DNA of 64,000 nt from Clostridia bacterium. GTDB lineage: Bacteria > Bacillota > Clostridia > CAKSNL01 > HGM11501. Both the position numbers and the translations under genes were made by a program. The notes beneath the pieces are model-generated. The model had not been told where the DNA came from. It searched no databases and saw nothing but the letters and a program-made list of their open reading frames with translations. This document shows, one piece after another, positions 10,657 through 38,931 of this stretch; the stretch's first letter is position 1; each line of letters opens with the position of its first letter. Location of the stretch: contig JAZQAZ010000047.1 of the NCBI GenBank assembly GCA_045545475.1, positions 32,001 to 96,000 on the forward strand. Direction: 5' to 3'.

Positions 10657-13548
<2,892 letters not shown>

Positions 13549-24777: not shown

Positions 24778-24853
24778 GGGAGCATAGCTCAGTTGGGAGA
24801 GCATCTGCCTTACAAGCAGAGGGTCATAGGTTCGAGCCCTATTGTTCCCACCA
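24778..24853 (+). tRNA. tRNA-Val(TAC)
   Basis: Cloverleaf GGGAGCA...TGTTCCC-ACCA; anticodon arm TCTGC-CTTACAA-GCAGA; TTCGA T-loop. Confidence 0.97.
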
Positions 24854-24860
24854 TTTTTTT

Positions 24861-24937
24861 GGCCTGGTAGTTCAGCTGGTTAGAACGCTAGCCTGTCACG
24901 CTAGAGGTCGTGGGTTCGAGTCCCATCCAGGTCGCCA
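24861..24937 (+). tRNA. tRNA-Asp(GTC)
   Basis: GGCCTGG...CCAGGTC-GCCA; anticodon arm CTAGC-CTGTCAC-GCTAG. Confidence 0.97.
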
Positions 24938-24942
24938 TTTTT

Positions 24943-25018
24943 GCCTCTGTAGCTCAGTTGGTAGAGCAAAGGACTGAAAATCCTTGTGTCACTGGTTCGA
25001 TTCCAGTCGGAGGCACCA
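24943..25018 (+). tRNA. tRNA-Phe(GAA)
   Basis: GCCTCTG...CGGAGGC-ACCA; anticodon arm AAGGA-CTGAAAA-TCCTT. Confidence 0.97.
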
Positions 25019-25025
25019 GGTAAAT

Positions 25026-25100
25026 GCGGGAGTGGCTCAGTGGTAGAGCGTCACCTTGCCAAGGTGAACGTCGCGAGTTCGAATCTCGTCTTCCGCTCCA
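25026..25100 (+). tRNA. tRNA-Gly(GCC)
   Basis: GCGGGAG...CTTCCGC-TCCA; anticodon arm TCACC-TTGCCAA-GGTGA. Confidence 0.97.
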
Positions 25101-25148
25101 AAAACACAAAGGAGACGCGTCAGATTTGGTGCGTCGCTTTTGTTATAA

Positions 25149-25222
25149 GGCGCCATGGCCAAGTGGTAAGGCAAAGGTCTGCAACACCTATATCCCCAGT
25201 TCGAGTCTGGGTGGCGCCTCCA
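25149..25222 (+). tRNA. tRNA-Cys(GCA)
   Basis: GGCGCCA...TGGCGCC-TCCA; anticodon loop CTGCAAC; U73 discriminator. Confidence 0.95.
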
Positions 25223-25256: not shown

Positions 25257-25432
25257 AATGAAATTTGCCTGCGTCAAGTGAAATACGCTACGCGTATGAA
25301 ATATTGCTTCGCAATGTGAAATATGCCTTGCGGCATATGAAAAGGCAAATTTTATTTCACATTTTTCTGTAAGAAAAATATTTCATAATCCGTAGGGTTA
25401 TTTCATATCAACGAAGTTGATATTTCATTAAA
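25254..25432. repeat. Comb-like multi-hairpin repeat element: 5x TGAAA(T) followed by 4x ATTTCA, spaced by small hairpins, closed by an 11-bp inverted repeat
   Basis: TGAAAT at 25259, 25279, 25297 and 25317, and TGAAA at 25338; ATTTCA at 25354, 25380, 25400 and 25422. Outer IR is TTTAATGAAAT/ATTTCATTAAA. Confidence 0.85.
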
Positions 25433-33414: not shown

Positions 33415-33443
33415 TTGACAAATAAAAAAAACGGTGGTATAAT
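33415..33443 (+). promoter_or_regulatory. sigmaA promoter of the T-box leader
   Basis: Perfect TTGACA-17-TATAAT with extended -10 TG. Confidence 0.85.
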
Positions 33444-33459
33444 CCTTTCAACATAAATA

Positions 33460-33735
33460 AACAAACGCAGTGATGCGGAATAGTAAGTAAGGACTTCACC
33501 TTTCAAGAGAAATGCCGGTTGGTGCAAGGCATAAGGGAAAATTTACTGAACTCGCCGCGGAGCGGTTGCCGTGAAATGTAAAGAGTAATGGCAAACGGGA
33601 ACTCCCGTTACAGAGTTAAGATGTGTTGGCATCTAAGGGCATCCTTTGGGATGAAAAAGAGTGGTACCGCGGAAATGTTTAAATTTTTACGTTTTCGTCT
33701 CTTTGGAAAAGCAAAGAGACGGAAACGTTTTTTTA
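33460..33735 (+). ncRNA. T-box riboswitch, leucine specifier (CUC)
   Basis: Stem I with AGAGA and GGTG motifs; GAA-CTC specifier at 33551-33553. T-box AGAGTGGTACCGCG at ~33658-33671. Terminator ACGTTTTCGTCTCTTTG...CAAAGAGACGGAAACGT-T tract at 33689-33735. Confidence 0.9.
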
Positions 33736-33774
33736 TTGAATCGCAAAAATATTTTGAAAGAAAAGAGGGTTTTT

Positions 33775-35163
33775 ATGAAAAAAATCAACATCACAGATAT
33801 AACATTAAAGGAGCTTTCAAAGGACAGGGGAATTTCACTTTTATTCCGTGAAAAGACAGCTGTTTCCGCCTGTGCTGATTCTCTCGGAATCGATGCAATT
33901 GAGCTTGCCGGCGTTAAAAATGAAAGAGAAGATAAAATTATATATAAAACCATATCTCAGAACGTAAAGGAAAGCGTTGTTGCAATTCCGGTTGGCTTTA
34001 CAAAGGAAGAAGTTGCACTTTCCTGGGAATGCATAAAGGAAGCAGCAAAGCCTCGCCTTCAGGTGGAAGTTCCCGTATCAACGGTGCAGATGGAATATAT
34101 CTATCACATCAAGGAAGAAAAGATGCTTGAAAAAATTGCTGAGCTTACAAAGGAAGCAAAGACTATTTGCTCCGATGTTGAATTTTCTGCACTTGATGCA
34201 ACAAGAGCAGACATTGCGTTCTTGGTTGCGGCGGCAAAAATTGCAGCCAAAAACGGTGCAACGGTAATTTCCGTATCCGATGATGCAGGTGTATCCCTTC
34301 CTTCTGAAATCGGAGAAATTGTATCTTCAATAAAGGCAGAACTTGACATCCCCTTATATGTAAGAGTGTCAGATGCACTCGGAATGGCAAGCGCATCTGC
34401 AATAGAGGCAATTAAAAACGGGGCTGACGGAGTGAAGAGTGCAATGGCAGGAGAAAATATTTTATCCTCTGGCGTAATTTCCGATATCGTAAGTGCAAGA
34501 GGCGATGCCCTTGGCATAGAAACAAGCCTTAAAAATACAAAAATCCACAGAAGCATTGACGATCTGCTTCTGTCAATCAATCATGAAGTATACGACACTG
34601 ACGGTACAGTAAGCGAAAAGAAAAAGATTTTACTCGATGCAGACAGCACCATTTTCCAGGTATCCCAGGCGGCAGAAGTACTGGGCTATGACCTGTCCGA
34701 TGAGGATTTGGGAAATGTACTTCGGGCAATAGTGAACATATGTGAGAAGAAGGGCACCATTGGTGCAAAGGAGCTTGAAGCATTAATTGCCAGTGAAGCA
34801 CAGAGAGTTCCTTCCACATATCATCTCGAAAGCTATACCACCACCTGCGGAAACAAAATGGATTCAATGTCTCAGGTAATACTTAAATGCAATGATGAAA
34901 TAATCTCCGGTGTAAGTGCAGGCGACGGTCCCATCGATTCGGTATTCCGTGCAATTGAACAGAGCATCGGCTTCCACTATGAGCTGGACGATTTCCAGAT
35001 TCAGGCTGTAACAGAGGGTAAAGAGGCACTCGGTTCTGCCATTGTAAAGCTGAGAAACAACGGAAAGCTCTATTCCGGTAACGGAATTTCCGCCGACATC
35101 GTTGCGGCAAGTGTAAGAGCTTATATAAACGCACTTAACAAAATTGTCTTTGAGGAGAATTAA
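33775..35163 (+). CDS. Degenerate 2-isopropylmalate synthase homolog (probable pseudoenzyme) with intact C-terminal LeuA allosteric domain
   Basis: Aligns by eye to LeuA (DVEFSALDATR, GDGPIDS, QAVTEGKEALG, AYINALNK). However, DTTLRDGEQ is DITLKELSK, HCHND is RVSDA, and GIGERAGN and HESGIHQDG are absent. Start ATG 33775. Confidence 0.85.
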   Translation: MKKINITDITLKELSKDRGISLLFREKTAVSACADSLGIDAIELAGVKNEREDKIIYKTISQNVKESVVAIPVGFTKEEVALSWECIKEAAKPRLQVEVPVSTVQMEYIYHIKEEKMLEKIAELTKEAKTICSDVEFSALDATRADIAFLVAAAKIAAKNGATVISVSDDAGVSLPSEIGEIVSSIKAELDIPLYVRVSDALGMASASAIEAIKNGADGVKSAMAGENILSSGVISDIVSARGDALGIETSLKNTKIHRSIDDLLLSINHEVYDTDGTVSEKKKILLDADSTIFQVSQAAEVLGYDLSDEDLGNVLRAIVNICEKKGTIGAKELEALIASEAQRVPSTYHLESYTTTCGNKMDSMSQVILKCNDEIISGVSAGDGPIDSVFRAIEQSIGFHYELDDFQIQAVTEGKEALGSAIVKLRNNGKLYSGNGISADIVAASVRAYINALNKIVFEEN

Positions 35164-35164
35164 C

Positions 35165-37621
35165 ATGAAAATCGTATTTTCGACAAAAAATGTAAGCCGC
35201 CCGTCTTTTCTGGACTTGTGCCGCTATGCATATGACTACGGATATTCGGGATTTGAAATTTACGATGCGACAAAAGAGAGAGCATCCCACTATGACAGCA
35301 TTCTCCGTAATGACCGCACGGCAGATGCGAAAAGAAAGTTACTTAACAGAAGCCTTTCTGTTTCGGCACTTCATTATCCCTACAGCATTGATTCGGATGA
35401 AGCAACGGGGGACGGCATATATAAATATGTAGTTATGGCACGCATTGCCGGCATTGAAAACGTAATAGTAAGAATCGAAAAGGAAACGGATAAGGCAGTG
35501 CTTTCAGAAAAGCTTGGCGAAGCTATAAAATGCGCCGAAAAGTCTGATGTAAGAATCCTTCTTGAAACTGTCGGCTATCTTTCGGAAACTGAGCATGTAA
35601 TTGATATAATAAACCATTTCTCATCAGCAGTGCTTGGTGCTTCCTGGAATATCAGAGGCACATACTTCGGTGCAGGAGAAAGTGCAGAAACCACCATAAA
35701 AAGCCTTGGTGCATATATAAAATATGTACGTCTGGGTGATATGGCGGACGGCAAAACCGTTTTAATAGGCGAGGGAACACTTCCTGTAGGCGAATTCATA
35801 AACGCCCTTACGAGCCTTAACTTTGACGGCTTTGTATGTGCTTCATGGAACGATGAAATCAACGATGCTGATATTGTACTCACTCACTTTGCAAACTATA
35901 TTGCATCCCTTTCAAGGGATAAAAAGGAGCACGACAAGGTATATTACAACAGAGCAAAGACAGGTACCTTTGTATGGAAAAAGTATGACATCATCGACTA
36001 TACCTTCTCCGAGGTGCTTGACACAATGGTAGAAAAGTACCCCGACCAGTATGCATTCAAGTACACAACCCTTGACTATACAAGAACATACGCCCAGTTC
36101 CGCCGTGATGTGGATGAATGTGCCGCAGCTTTAATTTCCCTCGGCGTAAAAGCAGGAGACCACGTGGCTGTATGGGCAACAAACATCCCTGCCTGGTATA
36201 TCACCTTCTGGGCAACCACGAAAATCGGTGCCGTATTGGTTACGGTAAACACCGCATACAAAATCCACGAAATTGAATACCTCTTAAAGCAGTCGGATAC
36301 CCATACTTTGGTTATGATAGATGAGTGCAAGGACATTAATTATAAGGAAATTATGGAGGAACTATGCCCTGAGCTTAAGACTATGAAACCCGGCGATGCA
36401 CTCTATTCCAAAAACCTGCCCTTCCTTCGTAATATCGTAACAGTAGGCTTCTCTATGCAGGGGTGCCTTACCTGGGAAGAAATGTTAAAGAGAGCAGAAA
36501 TGGTGCCCCGTGAAGAGGTAAGGCGACGTGCATCGCTTGTCAAGGCAGACGATGTATGTAATATGCAGTATACATCGGGAACTACAGGCTTCCCCAAGGG
36601 CGTAATGCTTACCCACAGAAACATTGTAAATAACGGTAAGACGATAGGCGACAGAATGGATTTATCCACCGCTGACCGTATGATGATTCAGGTACCTATG
36701 TTCCACTGCTTTGGAATGGTGCTTTCAATGACATCAATGATGACTCACGGCGGAACACTTTGCCCCATGCCTTATTTCTCACCGAAATCATCCCTTGCCT
36801 GCGTAAACGATGAGCATATCACCTGCTTTAACGGCGTCCCCACAATGTTTATCGCAATGTTTGCACATAAGGACTTTGCAAAGACCGACTTTTCATATAT
36901 GAGAACCGGGATTATGGCAGGTGCAAACTGCCCTGCGGACCTTATGAGACGTGCTGCGGACGAAATGAATATGCGTGAGATTATCTCCGTTTACGGTCAG
37001 ACCGAAGCATCACCGGGATGCACGATGGGTGAAGTAAATGAGGATATCGACCACAGAGTTGAAACAGTCGGTTCACCCTTCCCCGGCGTTGAGTGTAAGA
37101 TAATCGATCCCGAAACAGGGGAAGAATTGCCCGACGGTGAAAGCGGCGAATTTGTGGCACGCGGATTTAACATAATGAAGGGCTATTATAAAATGCCCGA
37201 AGCAACCGCACAGACCATTGATAAAGACGGATGGCTTCACTCTGGCGACATCTGTTGCCGTACACCTGACGGATATTTCAAGGTAACCGGCCGTCTTAAG
37301 GATATGATAATAAGAGGCGGTGAAAACCTTTATCCCAGAGAAATTGAAGAATTTTATCTTACCAATCCTAAGGTACGTGACGTTCAGGTTGTGGGTGTGC
37401 CGGATGAGCGTTACGGCGAGGAATGCTGTGCGTGGATAATTCTTCACAAGGGCGAGGAGGCAACCGAGGAAGAAATGAAGGAATTCGGTAACGCTTCCAT
37501 TGCACGCCATAAAGTGCCTCGCTATTTCATTTTCGTGAAAGAATTCCCCATGAATGCGGCAGGTAAAATATTAAAGTATAAAATGCGTGATGAATCCAAG
37601 GAAATACTTGGTCTTAAATAA
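35165..37621 (+). CDS. Fusion of a degenerate xylose-isomerase-like TIM barrel (~250 aa) and an AMP-forming acyl-CoA ligase (YngI/ACSF2-like)
   Basis: C-terminal QYTSGTTGFPKG, PMFHCFG, YGQTE, GWLHSGD, RGGENLYPREIEE and GKILK. N-terminal GYSGFEI, ILLET and IGEGTLP. ATG lies 1 nt after the upstream stop. Confidence 0.88.
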   Translation: MKIVFSTKNVSRPSFLDLCRYAYDYGYSGFEIYDATKERASHYDSILRNDRTADAKRKLLNRSLSVSALHYPYSIDSDEATGDGIYKYVVMARIAGIENVIVRIEKETDKAVLSEKLGEAIKCAEKSDVRILLETVGYLSETEHVIDIINHFSSAVLGASWNIRGTYFGAGESAETTIKSLGAYIKYVRLGDMADGKTVLIGEGTLPVGEFINALTSLNFDGFVCASWNDEINDADIVLTHFANYIASLSRDKKEHDKVYYNRAKTGTFVWKKYDIIDYTFSEVLDTMVEKYPDQYAFKYTTLDYTRTYAQFRRDVDECAAALISLGVKAGDHVAVWATNIPAWYITFWATTKIGAVLVTVNTAYKIHEIEYLLKQSDTHTLVMIDECKDINYKEIMEELCPELKTMKPGDALYSKNLPFLRNIVTVGFSMQGCLTWEEMLKRAEMVPREEVRRRASLVKADDVCNMQYTSGTTGFPKGVMLTHRNIVNNGKTIGDRMDLSTADRMMIQVPMFHCFGMVLSMTSMMTHGGTLCPMPYFSPKSSLACVNDEHITCFNGVPTMFIAMFAHKDFAKTDFSYMRTGIMAGANCPADLMRRAADEMNMREIISVYGQTEASPGCTMGEVNEDIDHRVETVGSPFPGVECKIIDPETGEELPDGESGEFVARGFNIMKGYYKMPEATAQTIDKDGWLHSGDICCRTPDGYFKVTGRLKDMIIRGGENLYPREIEEFYLTNPKVRDVQVVGVPDERYGEECCAWIILHKGEEATEEEMKEFGNASIARHKVPRYFIFVKEFPMNAAGKILKYKMRDESKEILGLK

Positions 37622-37625
37622 TTTT

Positions 37626-37655
37626 AATGCGGTAAGGGAAACCTTACCGCATTTT
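37626..37655 (+). terminator. Intrinsic terminator closing the T-box operon
   Basis: AATGCGGTAAGG-GAAA-CCTTACCGCATT-TT. Confidence 0.75.
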
Positions 37656-37666
37656 CTAAAGAATAA

Positions 37667-37695
37667 TTGACGTAATCAAAAGATTGTGATATACT
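37667..37695 (+). promoter_or_regulatory. sigmaA promoter for aminotransferase-ppa-tetR
   Basis: TTGACG-17-TATACT with extended -10 TG. Confidence 0.65.
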
Positions 37696-37743: not shown

Positions 37744-38931
37744 ATGGTATCTGAAAAAATGTATGAGCTCGGAAGCAAAAGAAGCGAAATCCGTGAGCTT
37801 TTCGAGTATGGATTAAAAAGAAAGGCAGAAATCGGAGCTGAAAATGTTTTCGATTTCAGCTTGGGTAACCCCAGCGTTCCTGCACCCGAATGTGTAAAGG
37901 AAGCACTCGCTGATTTAGTACTTAACACAGACCCCGTGGCACTTCACGGCTACACCTCTGCCCAGGGTGCACCCGATGTAAGAAAAAGCTGTGCAGACTA
38001 CGTAAATAAAACCTTTGGTACAAGCTATACAGGGGACAATTTCTATATGACGGTAGGTGCGGCGGCATCCCTTACAATTTCCCTTTCCGCAATATCTGAA
38101 GAGGGAAGCGAGGTTATCGTTCTTGCACCCTTTTTCCCCGAATACACAGTATTCATAAAGCAGGCGGGAATGACGCCCGTAACAGTAAAGTGCCGCGAAG
38201 AGGACTTTCAAATTGACTTTGATGCACTCAAGTGTGCAATAGGAGACAAGACAAAGGCGATAATCATAAATTCACCAAACAATCCTTCAGGCGTTGTGTT
38301 CTCCGAGGATACAATCAAGCGCCTTGCCGAAGTTTTAGCCGAGGCGGAAGCAAAATATAACAAGGAAATATACATAATTGCGGACGAGCCTTACCGTGAG
38401 CTTGTATACACAGATGGCGTAACCGTTCCTTTCATTCCTAACTATTACAACAACACAATAGTTTGCTATTCCTTCAGTAAGTCACTTTCCCTTCCTGGTG
38501 AAAGAATCGGTTATATCTTAGTTCCAGACAAGGCAACCGACTGGAAAAAGGTTTACTTTGCGGTTTGCGGAGCAGGCAGAAGCCTTGGCTTTGTTTGTGC
38601 ACCGTCCCTTTTCCAGAAGATTGTACCCAAATGCATAGGAAAAACAGCGGACATTTCAATCTACAAGAAAAACCGAGATATTTTATGCGATGCACTCACA
38701 AAATACGGCTACAAGGTGGCACAGCCCGATGGTGCGTTCTATCTTTTTGTAAAGGCAATGGAGTCTGATTCCCACGCTTTTTGCGAAAAGGCTAAAAAGT
38801 ATGAACTTCTCTTGGTGCCCGGTGACAGCTTCGGCTATCCCGGCTACATCAGAATTTCCTACTGCGTATCAACTGAAATGATTGAAAAGTCACTTCCTTC
38901 ATTTGAAAAACTTGCTGCGGAATATAAATAA
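37744..38931 (+). CDS. Class I/II PLP-dependent aminotransferase (aspartate aminotransferase-like)
   Basis: FSLGNP, NSPNNPSG, DEPY and SFSKSLSLPGERIGY (PLP lysine). Confidence 0.93.
   Translation: MVSEKMYELGSKRSEIRELFEYGLKRKAEIGAENVFDFSLGNPSVPAPECVKEALADLVLNTDPVALHGYTSAQGAPDVRKSCADYVNKTFGTSYTGDNFYMTVGAAASLTISLSAISEEGSEVIVLAPFFPEYTVFIKQAGMTPVTVKCREEDFQIDFDALKCAIGDKTKAIIINSPNNPSGVVFSEDTIKRLAEVLAEAEAKYNKEIYIIADEPYRELVYTDGVTVPFIPNYYNNTIVCYSFSKSLSLPGERIGYILVPDKATDWKKVYFAVCGAGRSLGFVCAPSLFQKIVPKCIGKTADISIYKKNRDILCDALTKYGYKVAQPDGAFYLFVKAMESDSHAFCEKAKKYELLLVPGDSFGYPGYIRISYCVSTEMIEKSLPSFEKLAAEYK

Follow-up and report, generated by a model that had tools for sequence, protein, structure and literature searches.

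What does a LeuA-like protein that has lost its catalytic residues do in one operon with an acyl-CoA ligase, behind a leader RNA that reads a leucine codon? This question is raised by a locus at positions 33415-37655 of a 64,000-nucleotide stretch of DNA, here called the window, from a Clostridia bacterium (GTDB lineage Bacteria; Bacillota; Clostridia; CAKSNL01; HGM11501; GenBank assembly GCA_045545475.1, contig JAZQAZ010000047.1, positions 32,001 to 96,000 of the forward strand). The initial annotation of the locus had suggested that the ligase activates isovalerate or a related branched acid for leucine synthesis, and that the dead LeuA serves it as a leucine-sensing partner. Our follow-up analysis leaves an operon for leucine starvation, devoted to isovalerate salvage and equipped with the LeuA-like protein as a sensor, as the best overall explanation, and we give this explanation as a whole an even chance of being right. 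The core unit is the leucine-controlled ligase with its fused TIM barrel; the LeuA-like protein is an add-on found mainly where LeuA itself is gone.

The leucine T-box and the LeuA-like first gene

All elements of the operon lie on the plus strand. A sigma-70-type promoter (33415-33443; TTGACA, a 17-nt spacer, TATAAT and a TG extension) matches the consensus at 12 of 12 positions and is followed by a T-box leader RNA (33461-33705) that covers positions 1-219 of the 219 positions of the Rfam model RF00230 with 134.9 bits (gathering threshold 93; E 7.7e-30), the best score among the seven T-boxes of the host genome. Its specifier codon CUC (Leu; 33551-33553) stands in the context GAA-CUC-G (33548-33554), so that a purine (G) follows the codon. 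The conserved core AGUGGUACCGCG is located at 33660-33671, and its UGGU would pair with the tRNA 3' end ACCA. An intrinsic terminator (33689-33735) consisting of a 17-bp stem (33689-33728) and a T-run ends the leader, which thus combines a score above the gathering threshold with a specifier plus purine, a UGGN core and a terminator/antiterminator region. Two tightly coupled genes follow. The first open reading frame (ORF1; 33775-35163; 462 amino acids) encodes the LeuA-like protein, and we use the name pLeuA for this protein and its LeuA-like, catalytically dead relatives. The second (ORF2; 35165-37621; 818 amino acids) starts 1 nt past the stop codon of ORF1, with a GAGGAG sequence upstream of it that lies within ORF1. 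A hairpin at 37626-37653 (12-bp stem, GAAA loop, then TTTCT) is likely to be the operon terminator. Promoter, leucine T-box, the two genes 1 nt apart and the terminator had all been named in the initial annotation, and each of them was found at the place given there.

The leader is a recurrent feature of this gene pair. We assembled a set of 80 pLeuA loci from species-representative genomes and detected T-boxes in them with an nhmmer profile built from 50 leaders. Of the 78 loci having upstream sequence, 64 have a T-box before pLeuA, and every readable specifier in this position is a leucine codon (63 of 63; CTC in 56 and CTG in seven). Judging from these leaders, the operon is almost certainly under the control of a leucine T-box. 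Uncharged tRNA-Leu would bind the leader via the CUC specifier and stabilise the antiterminator, and the two coupled genes would then be transcribed.

Two sets of observations concern the tRNA and the transcript. ARAGORN found 35 tRNA genes in the host draft, whose tRNA-Leu anticodons are AAG, CAA, CAG, TAA and TAG (e.g., positions 10899-10982 of host contig C47), AAG, CAG and TAG being the candidates for CUN codons; a tRNA-Leu gene with the anticodon GAG was not found by it in this draft and may be unassembled. Without such a tRNA, the reading of CUC would fall to tRNA-Leu(AAG), whose position 34 is presumably an inosine. RNA libraries from one study (three metatranscriptome runs) matched 0.08-0.12 of the sampled words, and contigs from them cover parts of the leader and of both genes at 90-99% likeness. 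Most of these pieces are only 90-95% alike and hence derive from relatives. Two contigs (34990-35367 and 35070-35347) span the junction between ORF1 and ORF2, which is weak evidence and may include DNA carry-over. Since the RNA data consist of contigs only, neither an expression level nor read-through at the T-box can be read from them.

The pLeuA protein is composed of a degenerate DRE-TIM barrel (amino acids 1-260), a shortened linker (261-330) and a LeuA_dimer domain (331-457); Pfam scores are 96 bits for HMGL-like and 108.6 bits for LeuA_dimer. The latter, the allosteric and dimerisation domain (PF08502; 34765-35145), is complete, with profile positions 4-130 of 131 being covered. The barrel aligns end to end with the LeuA proteins of Listeria (PDB 3ewb) and Escherichia coli, and this comparison bears out what had been noticed at first, namely the loss of the catalytic motifs in a protein that keeps the LeuA regulatory domain. 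DTTLRDGEQ of LeuA has become DITLKELSK, so that the substrate-binding Arg, the metal-binding Asp and the Glu are replaced by K, E and S, and the R-D-x-E motif reads K-E-L-S. The metal-binding HxH (HCH) has turned into RVS, GERAGN is missing relative to both reference proteins, and a deletion of about 35 residues has removed the HESGIHQDG segment. We take this HxSGIHxDG segment to be subdomain I of LeuA and its His to be catalytic. Stripped of its metal ligands, its catalytic residues and subdomain I, ORF1 cannot run the LeuA condensation, and it also misses the LeuA equivalog cut-offs by a wide margin (NF002086, 263.7 vs. 532 bits; TIGR00973, 234.8 vs. 598.7 bits). On these sequence features, pLeuA is very probably not a synthase.

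We searched 1.8 billion representatives of 50%-identity clusters for relatives of pLeuA. From the 150 matches listed, the 112 that are 445-530 amino acids long were aligned, and these comprise 105 pLeuA-like and seven LeuA-like proteins; the 105 together with ORF1 of the window (Q) make up the 106 members to which the following counts refer. Among the matches listed, the family extends down to about 34% identity at lengths of 455-480 amino acids. Not one of the 106 members has HxH, R-D-x-E or HxSGIHxDG, and R-D alone occurs in three of them. As far as this alignment reaches, the catalytic loss is ancient and uniform, and the active-site loss seen in the window is thus conserved. Two other representatives (P0249 and P0251; 503-511 amino acids) are LeuA-like and have GERAGN-like and DGEQ motifs; in proteins of this type, a Cys replaces the substrate Arg and one or both His residues of HxH are lost. 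These proteins resemble LeuA paralogues in partial decay and would form a second set, independent of pLeuA.

The part of pLeuA that is under the tightest constraint is the allosteric and dimerisation domain. Ratios of non-synonymous to synonymous substitutions (dN/dS), calculated at the codon level for the 25 closest of 49 pairs with 80-98.5% identity, are 0.004-0.036 for the LeuA_dimer domain, 0.05-0.12 for the barrel and 0.03-0.10 overall, and mean pairwise identity within the family is 67% in the regulatory domain vs. 44% in the barrel. As a landmark for the leucine pocket, we used the E. coli G462 site instead of a mapping onto a solved LeuA structure. The G462D substitution is listed as a feedback-resistant change of E. 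coli LeuA (PMC12967937, Table 1). This residue aligns with G420 of pLeuA, and a Gly is present there in 105 of the 106 members. A sequence search of the PDB with the regulatory domain alone gave chance matches only (activin receptors, E 0.18-0.48).

The pairing of pLeuA with ORF2 is equally stable. In 77 of the 80 loci, the gene directly behind pLeuA encodes a TIM barrel, and the remaining three loci are cut off by the end of the contig; in two of the 77, the contig stops before the ligase domain is reached. The estimated gap between pLeuA and the fusion gene has a median of about 2 nt and measures at most 20 nt in 67 of 75 loci. Across these loci, the ligase domain is 68-98% identical to that of the window, pLeuA 41-93% and the TIM domain 27-97%. 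For the distribution of the genes, we used a class-wide sample of genomes that are at least 90% complete (399 for pLeuA and LeuA, 401 for the ligase). A best match of at least 445 bits was called pLeuA, the profile score distribution being bimodal; a TIGR00973 match at E<=1e-90 was called true LeuA; and a match at E<=1e-150 with the ligase domain as query was called a ligase orthologue. By these thresholds, pLeuA is present in 67 of the 399 genomes, and 66 of these 67 carriers possess the ligase orthologue. In a small order-level sample, 7 of 14 genomes have pLeuA. The genomes of the relatives were assembled from metagenomes of ruminant and other guts.

Given that every catalytic motif has been lost, ORF1 might be taken for a decaying, functionless relic of leuA. 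This reading is refuted by the selection and conservation data: roughly 105 50%-identity clusters among the matches listed share the 455-480-residue architecture, the overall dN/dS is far from neutral, the synteny holds in 77 of 80 loci and the gene recurs in 67 of 399 genomes. The probability that we leave to it is close to nil. Hence, the possibility raised at the outset that ORF1 evolves neutrally as a recent pseudogene is contradicted by dN/dS values of 0.004-0.12 and by the conservation of the family.

The ligase fusion and a candidate route from isovalerate to leucine

ORF2 carries an N-terminal TIM-barrel domain (residues 20-231; 35222-35857) that belongs to PF01261 (AP_endonuc_2, xylose-isomerase-like; 50.4 vs. 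31.1 bits), and behind it the two ligase domains of the ANL superfamily (36026-37567), AMP-binding (residues 288-675; 320.4 bits) and AMP-binding_C (residues 726-801; 60.9 bits). The core motifs of the ligase, SGTTGFPKG, YGQTE, GRLKDMIIRGGEN and GK801, are invariant in all 38 aligned sequences. ORF2 thus has the attributes of an ANL acyl-CoA synthetase, i.e., both domains, the P-loop-like motif, YGxTE, the hinge and the C-terminal Lys. Source annotations call the fusion merely an "AMP-binding protein" or a "fatty-acyl-CoA synthase."

Pointers to its substrate come from the genes that accompany it. All ORFs from the 80 loci and the window (81 sources) were clustered, and Pfam domains were assigned to cluster representatives. 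Genes for a 2-oxoacid:ferredoxin oxidoreductase with alpha, beta and gamma subunits (KorA, KorB and KorG type) occur in 12 of the 81 sources for each subunit, in addition to five KorA fragments; a gene for a delta or ferredoxin subunit was not found near them in the related loci. In 23 loci, there is a gene for a MinD/ParA/Mrp-like P-loop NTPase, always just upstream of that for the oxidoreductase alpha subunit, and 12 loci contain a gene for a class-IV aminotransferase of the IlvE type. The P-loop NTPase (220 amino acids; e.g., L022:2095-2766) gives weak matches to models of Fe-S cluster carriers and may assist the 2-oxoacid synthase in its maturation or in electron transfer.

Paralogous ligases of 750-785 amino acids, in which an N-terminal helix-turn-helix (HTH) domain of the XRE type and a cupin are fused to the AMP-binding enzyme, are also encoded at these loci. 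Directly upstream of such HTH-cupin ligases we found 46 T-boxes, of which 33 have an ATC (Ile) specifier and 13 a GTA or GTC (Val) specifier; three of the 13 Val specifiers were read by eye because the alignment had inserted a pair. The three amino acid-specific T-box ligases, together with one oxidoreductase and one transaminase, amount to an enzyme set for the conversion of isovalerate, 2-methylbutyrate and isobutyrate into leucine, isoleucine and valine. The Ile/Val T-box ligases, which are often arranged in tandem and adjoin the leucine operon, occur at L015, L019, L021, L025-L029, L031, L034, L035, L037, L038, L040, L043, L044, L049, L051, L053, L057, L060, L064, L066, L068, L069, L072, L073, L078, L079, L081, L084, L087, L088, L091 and L092, and in the host genome itself at C41:94338-96864 (minus strand). 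The HTH-cupin module is unusual on an enzyme; it may take the part of a sensor in the Ile and Val branches.

The pathway genes that often form one cluster in relatives are scattered in the host genome: the genes for the P-loop NTPase and KorABG are located at C18:65667-68863 (P-loop NTPase at C18:65667-66236), an IlvE homologue is present on C20, one HTH-cupin ligase stands behind an ATC (Ile) T-box on C41, and a second such ligase is encoded on C29. The initial annotation had remarked that no leuBCD genes adjoin the operon. This is correct, and leuB, leuC and leuD were not found anywhere in the 95%-complete host genome either. The search of that genome for LeuC returned only a 659-residue aconitase-like frame, that for LeuB only a weak isocitrate dehydrogenase-like match, and that for LeuA no LeuA, the only other HMGL-like gene being one for an oxaloacetate decarboxylase-type alpha subunit beside its beta subunit; IlvC and IlvD were not found there. 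Without a de novo branched-chain pathway in the host, leucine must be supplied by the route considered here or by uptake.

The scheme that we propose runs as follows. ORF2 would most likely, judging from its context, convert isovalerate, ATP and CoA into isovaleryl-CoA, which the three-subunit oxidoreductase would reductively carboxylate to 4-methyl-2-oxopentanoate if it works in that direction. An aminotransferase, either of the IlvE type or the one encoded downstream of ORF2, would then yield leucine. The originally suggested role of the ligase in making leucine from isovalerate is supported by this context, in that the oxidoreductase, IlvE and the sister ligases behind Ile and Val T-boxes all fit the route, and we consider it probable from the gene content that the ligase serves isovalerate-to-leucine salvage.

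A different use of the same product has to be weighed here. The ligase might have its main use in priming the synthesis of iso-branched membrane fatty acids with isovaleryl-CoA, so that scarce leucine need not be broken down for lipids; the system would then spare leucine rather than make it. Induction by uncharged tRNA-Leu suits sparing as well as synthesis, and a short-chain acyl-CoA synthetase of Staphylococcus aureus does feed exogenous branched acids into fatty acid synthesis, according to the abstract describing it (PMC10026030). A further hint in this direction comes from fusion genes in genomes without pLeuA, of which we examined 20 loci picked from the best-scoring ones: most of these fusions stand alone without oxidoreductase genes, and only at one of the 20 loci (L111) is the fusion followed by the genes for the P-loop NTPase and KorABG. 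Nevertheless, the ligase is repeatedly found in an operon with the oxidoreductase and IlvE (12 loci and L111), LeuA is depleted among the pLeuA carriers, the host lacks the whole de novo pathway, and a partner with a leucine-binding domain is easier to explain for an amino acid pathway. We therefore regard provision of a lipid primer as distinctly unlikely to be the main function.

The place of pLeuA beside the fusion

True LeuA is encoded by 146 of the 399 genomes, and its distribution differs between the 67 pLeuA carriers, of which 62 lack it and five have it, and the 332 non-carriers, of which 141 have it; the sampled genomes are kin and not independent, so that this contrast is descriptive and no test is attached to it. 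Of the five LeuA-bearing carriers, four are from one genus and lie above the cut-off, and the fifth lies below it. The initial annotation had asked whether carriers lack leuABCD; for LeuA this is so in most of them, with these five as exceptions.

In our proposal, pLeuA would be an accessory subunit that binds leucine and relays its state of occupancy to the ligase as feedback, and it may dock on the N-terminal TIM barrel of the ligase, whose metal site would have decayed after pLeuA had been recruited. Synteny and co-occurrence make a leucine sensor acting on the ligase a serious possibility, which we put somewhat short of an even chance.

We take E134, D162, H165, H189, D192 and E227 to be the metal-ligand set of the TIM-barrel family. 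In the fusions from genomes without pLeuA, each of these six residues is present in 20 of 20 proteins. Among 25 distant pLeuA carriers, E134 is kept in 15, D162 in 22, H165 in 20, H189 in 25, D192 in 25 and E227 in 22. In the branch of the window, E134 and D192 are kept in all 36 proteins, E227 in one, and D162, H165 and H189 in none. The window's barrel, a member of PF01261 that is devoid of the Glu/Asp/His/Glu ligand set, has N162, R164, G165, R189 and S227 at the corresponding positions. The decay of the TIM metal site therefore tracks the presence of pLeuA. The initial annotation had described ORF2 as an intact ligase with an extra barrel; both parts are indeed present, and to this must be added that the metal ligands of the barrel are lost in the window's lineage. 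In a tree of the ligase domain, the proteins from pLeuA-less genomes group into a single clan (20 of 20; support 1.0), and a clade unites those of the window's branch (36 of 36; support 0.995). Such a topology would fit a single gain or a single loss of pLeuA in a tree whose root is unplaced and whose pLeuA-less genomes number only 20, chosen among the best-scoring ones.

The replacements in the window's branch are themselves conserved (N162 in 35, R164 in 36 and R189 in 35 of 36 proteins), and, if the residue pattern is any guide, the pocket may not be dead but bind anions without a metal. Asn162, Arg164 and Arg189 are found in the window (35645-35731, ORF2 residues 162-189) and in the same alignment columns of L013-L057 and L064. 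The TIM domain of the window matched none of the NCBIfam families at E<=0.01, and the barrel of a distant member gave weak matches to the models for fructoselysine 3-epimerase and hydroxypyruvate isomerase.

A number of results speak against the scheme set out above, or against pLeuA as a necessary part of it. In the first place, the fusion is far more widespread than pLeuA. TIM::ligase proteins occur in 198 of 401 genomes, as compared with 67 pLeuA carriers, and the identification of the matches as fusions follows from the best 150 ligase matches (at least 60% identity), almost all of which lie in frames of about 820-905 amino acids. At the 20 pLeuA-less loci, each gene encodes a fusion of 839-874 amino acids, and nine of these 20 genomes have LeuA. 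In 13 of the 20 loci, a T-box is located directly upstream of the fusion gene, with a CTC specifier in 13 of 13. A fusion that is common without pLeuA and has a leucine T-box of its own implies that the pLeuA regulator is dispensable and that the fusion alone carries the core function. Furthermore, 14 of the 78 loci have no T-box before pLeuA that is detectable with the nhmmer profile; an Rfam search of seven of these 14 at E<=0.01 found none before pLeuA either, its sole match being the T-box of a second ligase at L043. At eight of the 14 (L017, L059, L061, L065, L070, L075, L077 and L090), pLeuA is situated inside, or heads, an operon with oxidoreductase genes. The best NCBIfam match of ORF2, PRK12583, stays below its cut-off (672.9 vs. 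832 bits), and no fused pLeuA-ligase or longer form was found among the 8000 candidates scored, which is weak evidence. The intact metal site of the pLeuA-less barrels implies, as far as conserved residues tell, a catalytic or ligand-binding step beyond a scheme that consists of the ligase only. An Amidohydro_2 gene, for which the scheme has no role, directly follows the ligase gene in 29 pLeuA loci and in none of the 20 pLeuA-less ones. Finally, the barrel of pLeuA is constrained as well (dN/dS about 0.08) and keeps D8, T10, E107, Y108, K113, D141, R144 and D169, and may thus be more than a scaffold.

In view of the fusions that occur alone behind leucine T-boxes, also in genomes with LeuA, we regard pLeuA as an accessory and not as an obligate partner. 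The originally proposed partnership of ligase and dead LeuA is hence upheld in so far as the two are paired in 77 of 80 pLeuA loci, and has to be narrowed because the fusion ranges far wider. Near the 20 pLeuA-less fusion loci, we found neither pLeuA nor a LeuA-like gene nor Amidohydro_2. Three such loci belong to the window's own family (L093-L095, from genomes G007, G008 and G012); the fusion gene there follows asd-, dapA- and dapB-like genes, and the leader profile detected no T-box. The regulation of the fusion may differ in these closest pLeuA-less relatives of the window. The Amidohydro_2 protein has about 269 amino acids and an N-terminal HxH (e.g., L041:11237-12046), and the host has a homologue at C30:140583-141347.

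Could pLeuA and the TIM barrel carry out a catalytic or substrate-handling step of the leucine branch instead of acting as a sensor and its dock? Binding of a 2-oxoacid or an acyl-CoA, channelling between ligase and oxidoreductase, or a metal-independent version of the barrel's chemistry would be examples. The invariance of the metal site in the pLeuA-less fusions suggests real chemistry, its conserved substitution by N162, R164 and R189 is not a random loss, the pLeuA barrel is under purifying selection and retains several residues that line the LeuA active site, and Amidohydro_2 accompanies the pLeuA type only. Yet pLeuA has been deprived of all metal ligands and of the catalytic subdomain, its regulatory domain and not its barrel is the most constrained part, the Ile and Val branches manage without a helper of this kind, and no known reaction is missing from the isovalerate route. 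On balance, we consider such a step unlikely.

The same barrel and the same neighbour could also indicate that the ligase acts on another leucine-related acid (2-hydroxyisocaproate, isocaproate, 3-methylcrotonate or 3-hydroxyisovalerate) that the TIM barrel and Amidohydro_2 process. An intact isomerase- or epimerase-like barrel with the weak matches mentioned above, and a frequent Amidohydro_2 neighbour that has no place in a plain isovalerate scheme, would fit this, and so would the fact that the ORF2-type ligase belongs to a different ANL subfamily than the Ile/Val ligases (about 25% identity). What speaks for the three isoacids, however, is the parallel with the Ile/Val T-box ligases and the oxidoreductase that they share, and genes for dehydrogenases or dehydratases of such alternative routes do not recur in the neighbourhood. 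We look upon a different acid as a long shot and retain isovalerate as the preferred substrate.

Further features, known systems and meaning

Behind ORF2, again on the plus strand, a promoter-like site (37667-37695) precedes a gene for a class-I aminotransferase of the PRK06836 type (37744-38931). The initial annotation had given this gene its own promoter and left its participation undecided; a promoter-like site is present, and the gene is not a conserved neighbour (3 of 81 sources), in contrast to the class-IV IlvE gene that recurs in 12 loci. It was therefore rejected as a conserved pathway member, and its participation is uncertain. Elsewhere in the host genome, at C9:10733-10992 (plus strand), a T-box with the specifier GAA-UAC-G (Tyr) precedes genes for a 525-residue sodium:solute symporter-like protein, a 544-residue AMP-binding ligase and a CysK-like enzyme of the pyridoxal phosphate-dependent type; by analogy, these may turn a salvaged aromatic acid (4-hydroxyphenylacetate?) into tyrosine. 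Further T-boxes have the specifiers TTC (Phe; L015:15085-15336) and TGG (Trp; L078:12583-12329). The window also contains a cluster of five tRNA genes (24778-25219), followed by a pair of Gut-1 RNAs (RF01706) at 25276-25348 (plus strand; 66.3 bits) and 25349-25430 (minus strand; 50.3 bits).

With the short form of LeuA (TIGR00973/PRK00915), pLeuA shares the HMGL-like plus LeuA_dimer layout, a complete LeuA_dimer domain and the Gly of the feedback site. It is 25% identical to E. coli LeuA in the barrel and 30% in the regulatory domain, and it differs in the absence of R-D-x-E, HxH, GERAGN and HxSGIHxDG, in scores below half of the equivalog cut-offs, and in being encoded beside a ligase and not beside leuBCD. 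Members of PF01261 such as ketose 3-epimerases, hydroxypyruvate isomerase and inosose dehydratase are matched by the ORF2 barrel, whose pLeuA-less relatives keep ligands of the E-D-H-E type, while those of the window protein are replaced and it lacks an NCBIfam match at the threshold given above. We know of no characterised fusion of a PF01261 barrel to an ANL ligase.

The route itself is an old one. Classical labelling by Allison and co-workers reportedly traced isovalerate, isobutyrate and 2-methylbutyrate into leucine, valine and isoleucine via reductive carboxylation in rumen and gut anaerobes, and to our knowledge no genes were assigned in that work. The present gene set corresponds to this isoacid assimilation in its enzymes (acid activation, a ferredoxin-dependent 2-oxoacid synthase and a transaminase) and in its gut habitat.

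As a ligase for exogenous branched short acids in a Firmicute, the ORF2 enzyme resembles MbcS of S. aureus by description, an AMP-forming short-chain acyl-CoA synthetase for 2-methylbutyrate and isobutyrate that serves lipid priming (PMC10026030); the abstract on MbcS mentions neither a T-box nor a fusion to a TIM barrel nor a partner resembling LeuA. For the proposed sensor, the nearest precedent is HisZ, a dead paralogue of histidyl-tRNA synthetase that is described as the regulatory subunit of the short-form ATP phosphoribosyltransferase HisG(S) and mediates inhibition by histidine (PMC9734150). In both cases, a dead paralogue of an enzyme that recognises the end product would act as an allosteric subunit of the first committed, ATP-using step. 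The two proteins share neither fold nor pathway. Binding and regulation, which we propose for pLeuA, have been demonstrated for HisZ, and many lineages with the same ligase do without pLeuA. Our literature search found no paper on the dead LeuA, the T-box ligases for branched acids or the TIM::ligase fusion, or one linking them to the isovalerate route; the text of PMC3766115 contains none of the terms looked for, and its supplementary regulon tables may list such genes. The biochemical route is old knowledge, but no description seems to exist of the gene set, of the way in which codons address its control, or of the LeuA pseudoenzyme.

A broader picture can be sketched, which we offer as tentative and somewhat unlikely in its entirety: gut and rumen Clostridia would use codon-addressed salvage, with leucine, isoleucine and valine (possibly also tyrosine and phenylalanine) T-box ligases feeding a shared ferredoxin-dependent 2-oxoacid synthase, by which fermentation acids are made into amino acids again. 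In the leucine branch, lineages without de novo synthesis any longer would have retained pLeuA as a HisZ-like subunit for leucine sensing, which would dock on the TIM barrel of the ligase and have taken over the barrel's original role in ligand sensing or catalysis, and the metal site of the barrel would have decayed afterwards. Some of the pLeuA-less fusions are identical to proteins on record from cultured species, so that biochemical tests are feasible.

Isovalerate, isobutyrate and 2-methylbutyrate are needed or used by many fibre-degrading and gut anaerobes, a fact familiar for about 60 years and put to use in the feeding of ruminants. For isoacid use, genes and their control are poorly assigned, and the locus and its relatives offer a concrete candidate set, consisting of three T-box-addressed ligases, the P-loop NTPase with the three-subunit 2-oxoacid:ferredoxin oxidoreductase, and IlvE. 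Much of the Clostridia sample carries this set, and for the TIM::ligase fusion taken by itself the count is 198 of 401 genomes. The family also provides a natural series for the evolution of pseudoenzymes, in which LeuA, an essential biosynthetic enzyme, has lost catalysis and been kept under strong selection beside a new partner, and in which a second barrel, that of the ligase fusion, has lost its metal site in step with pLeuA.

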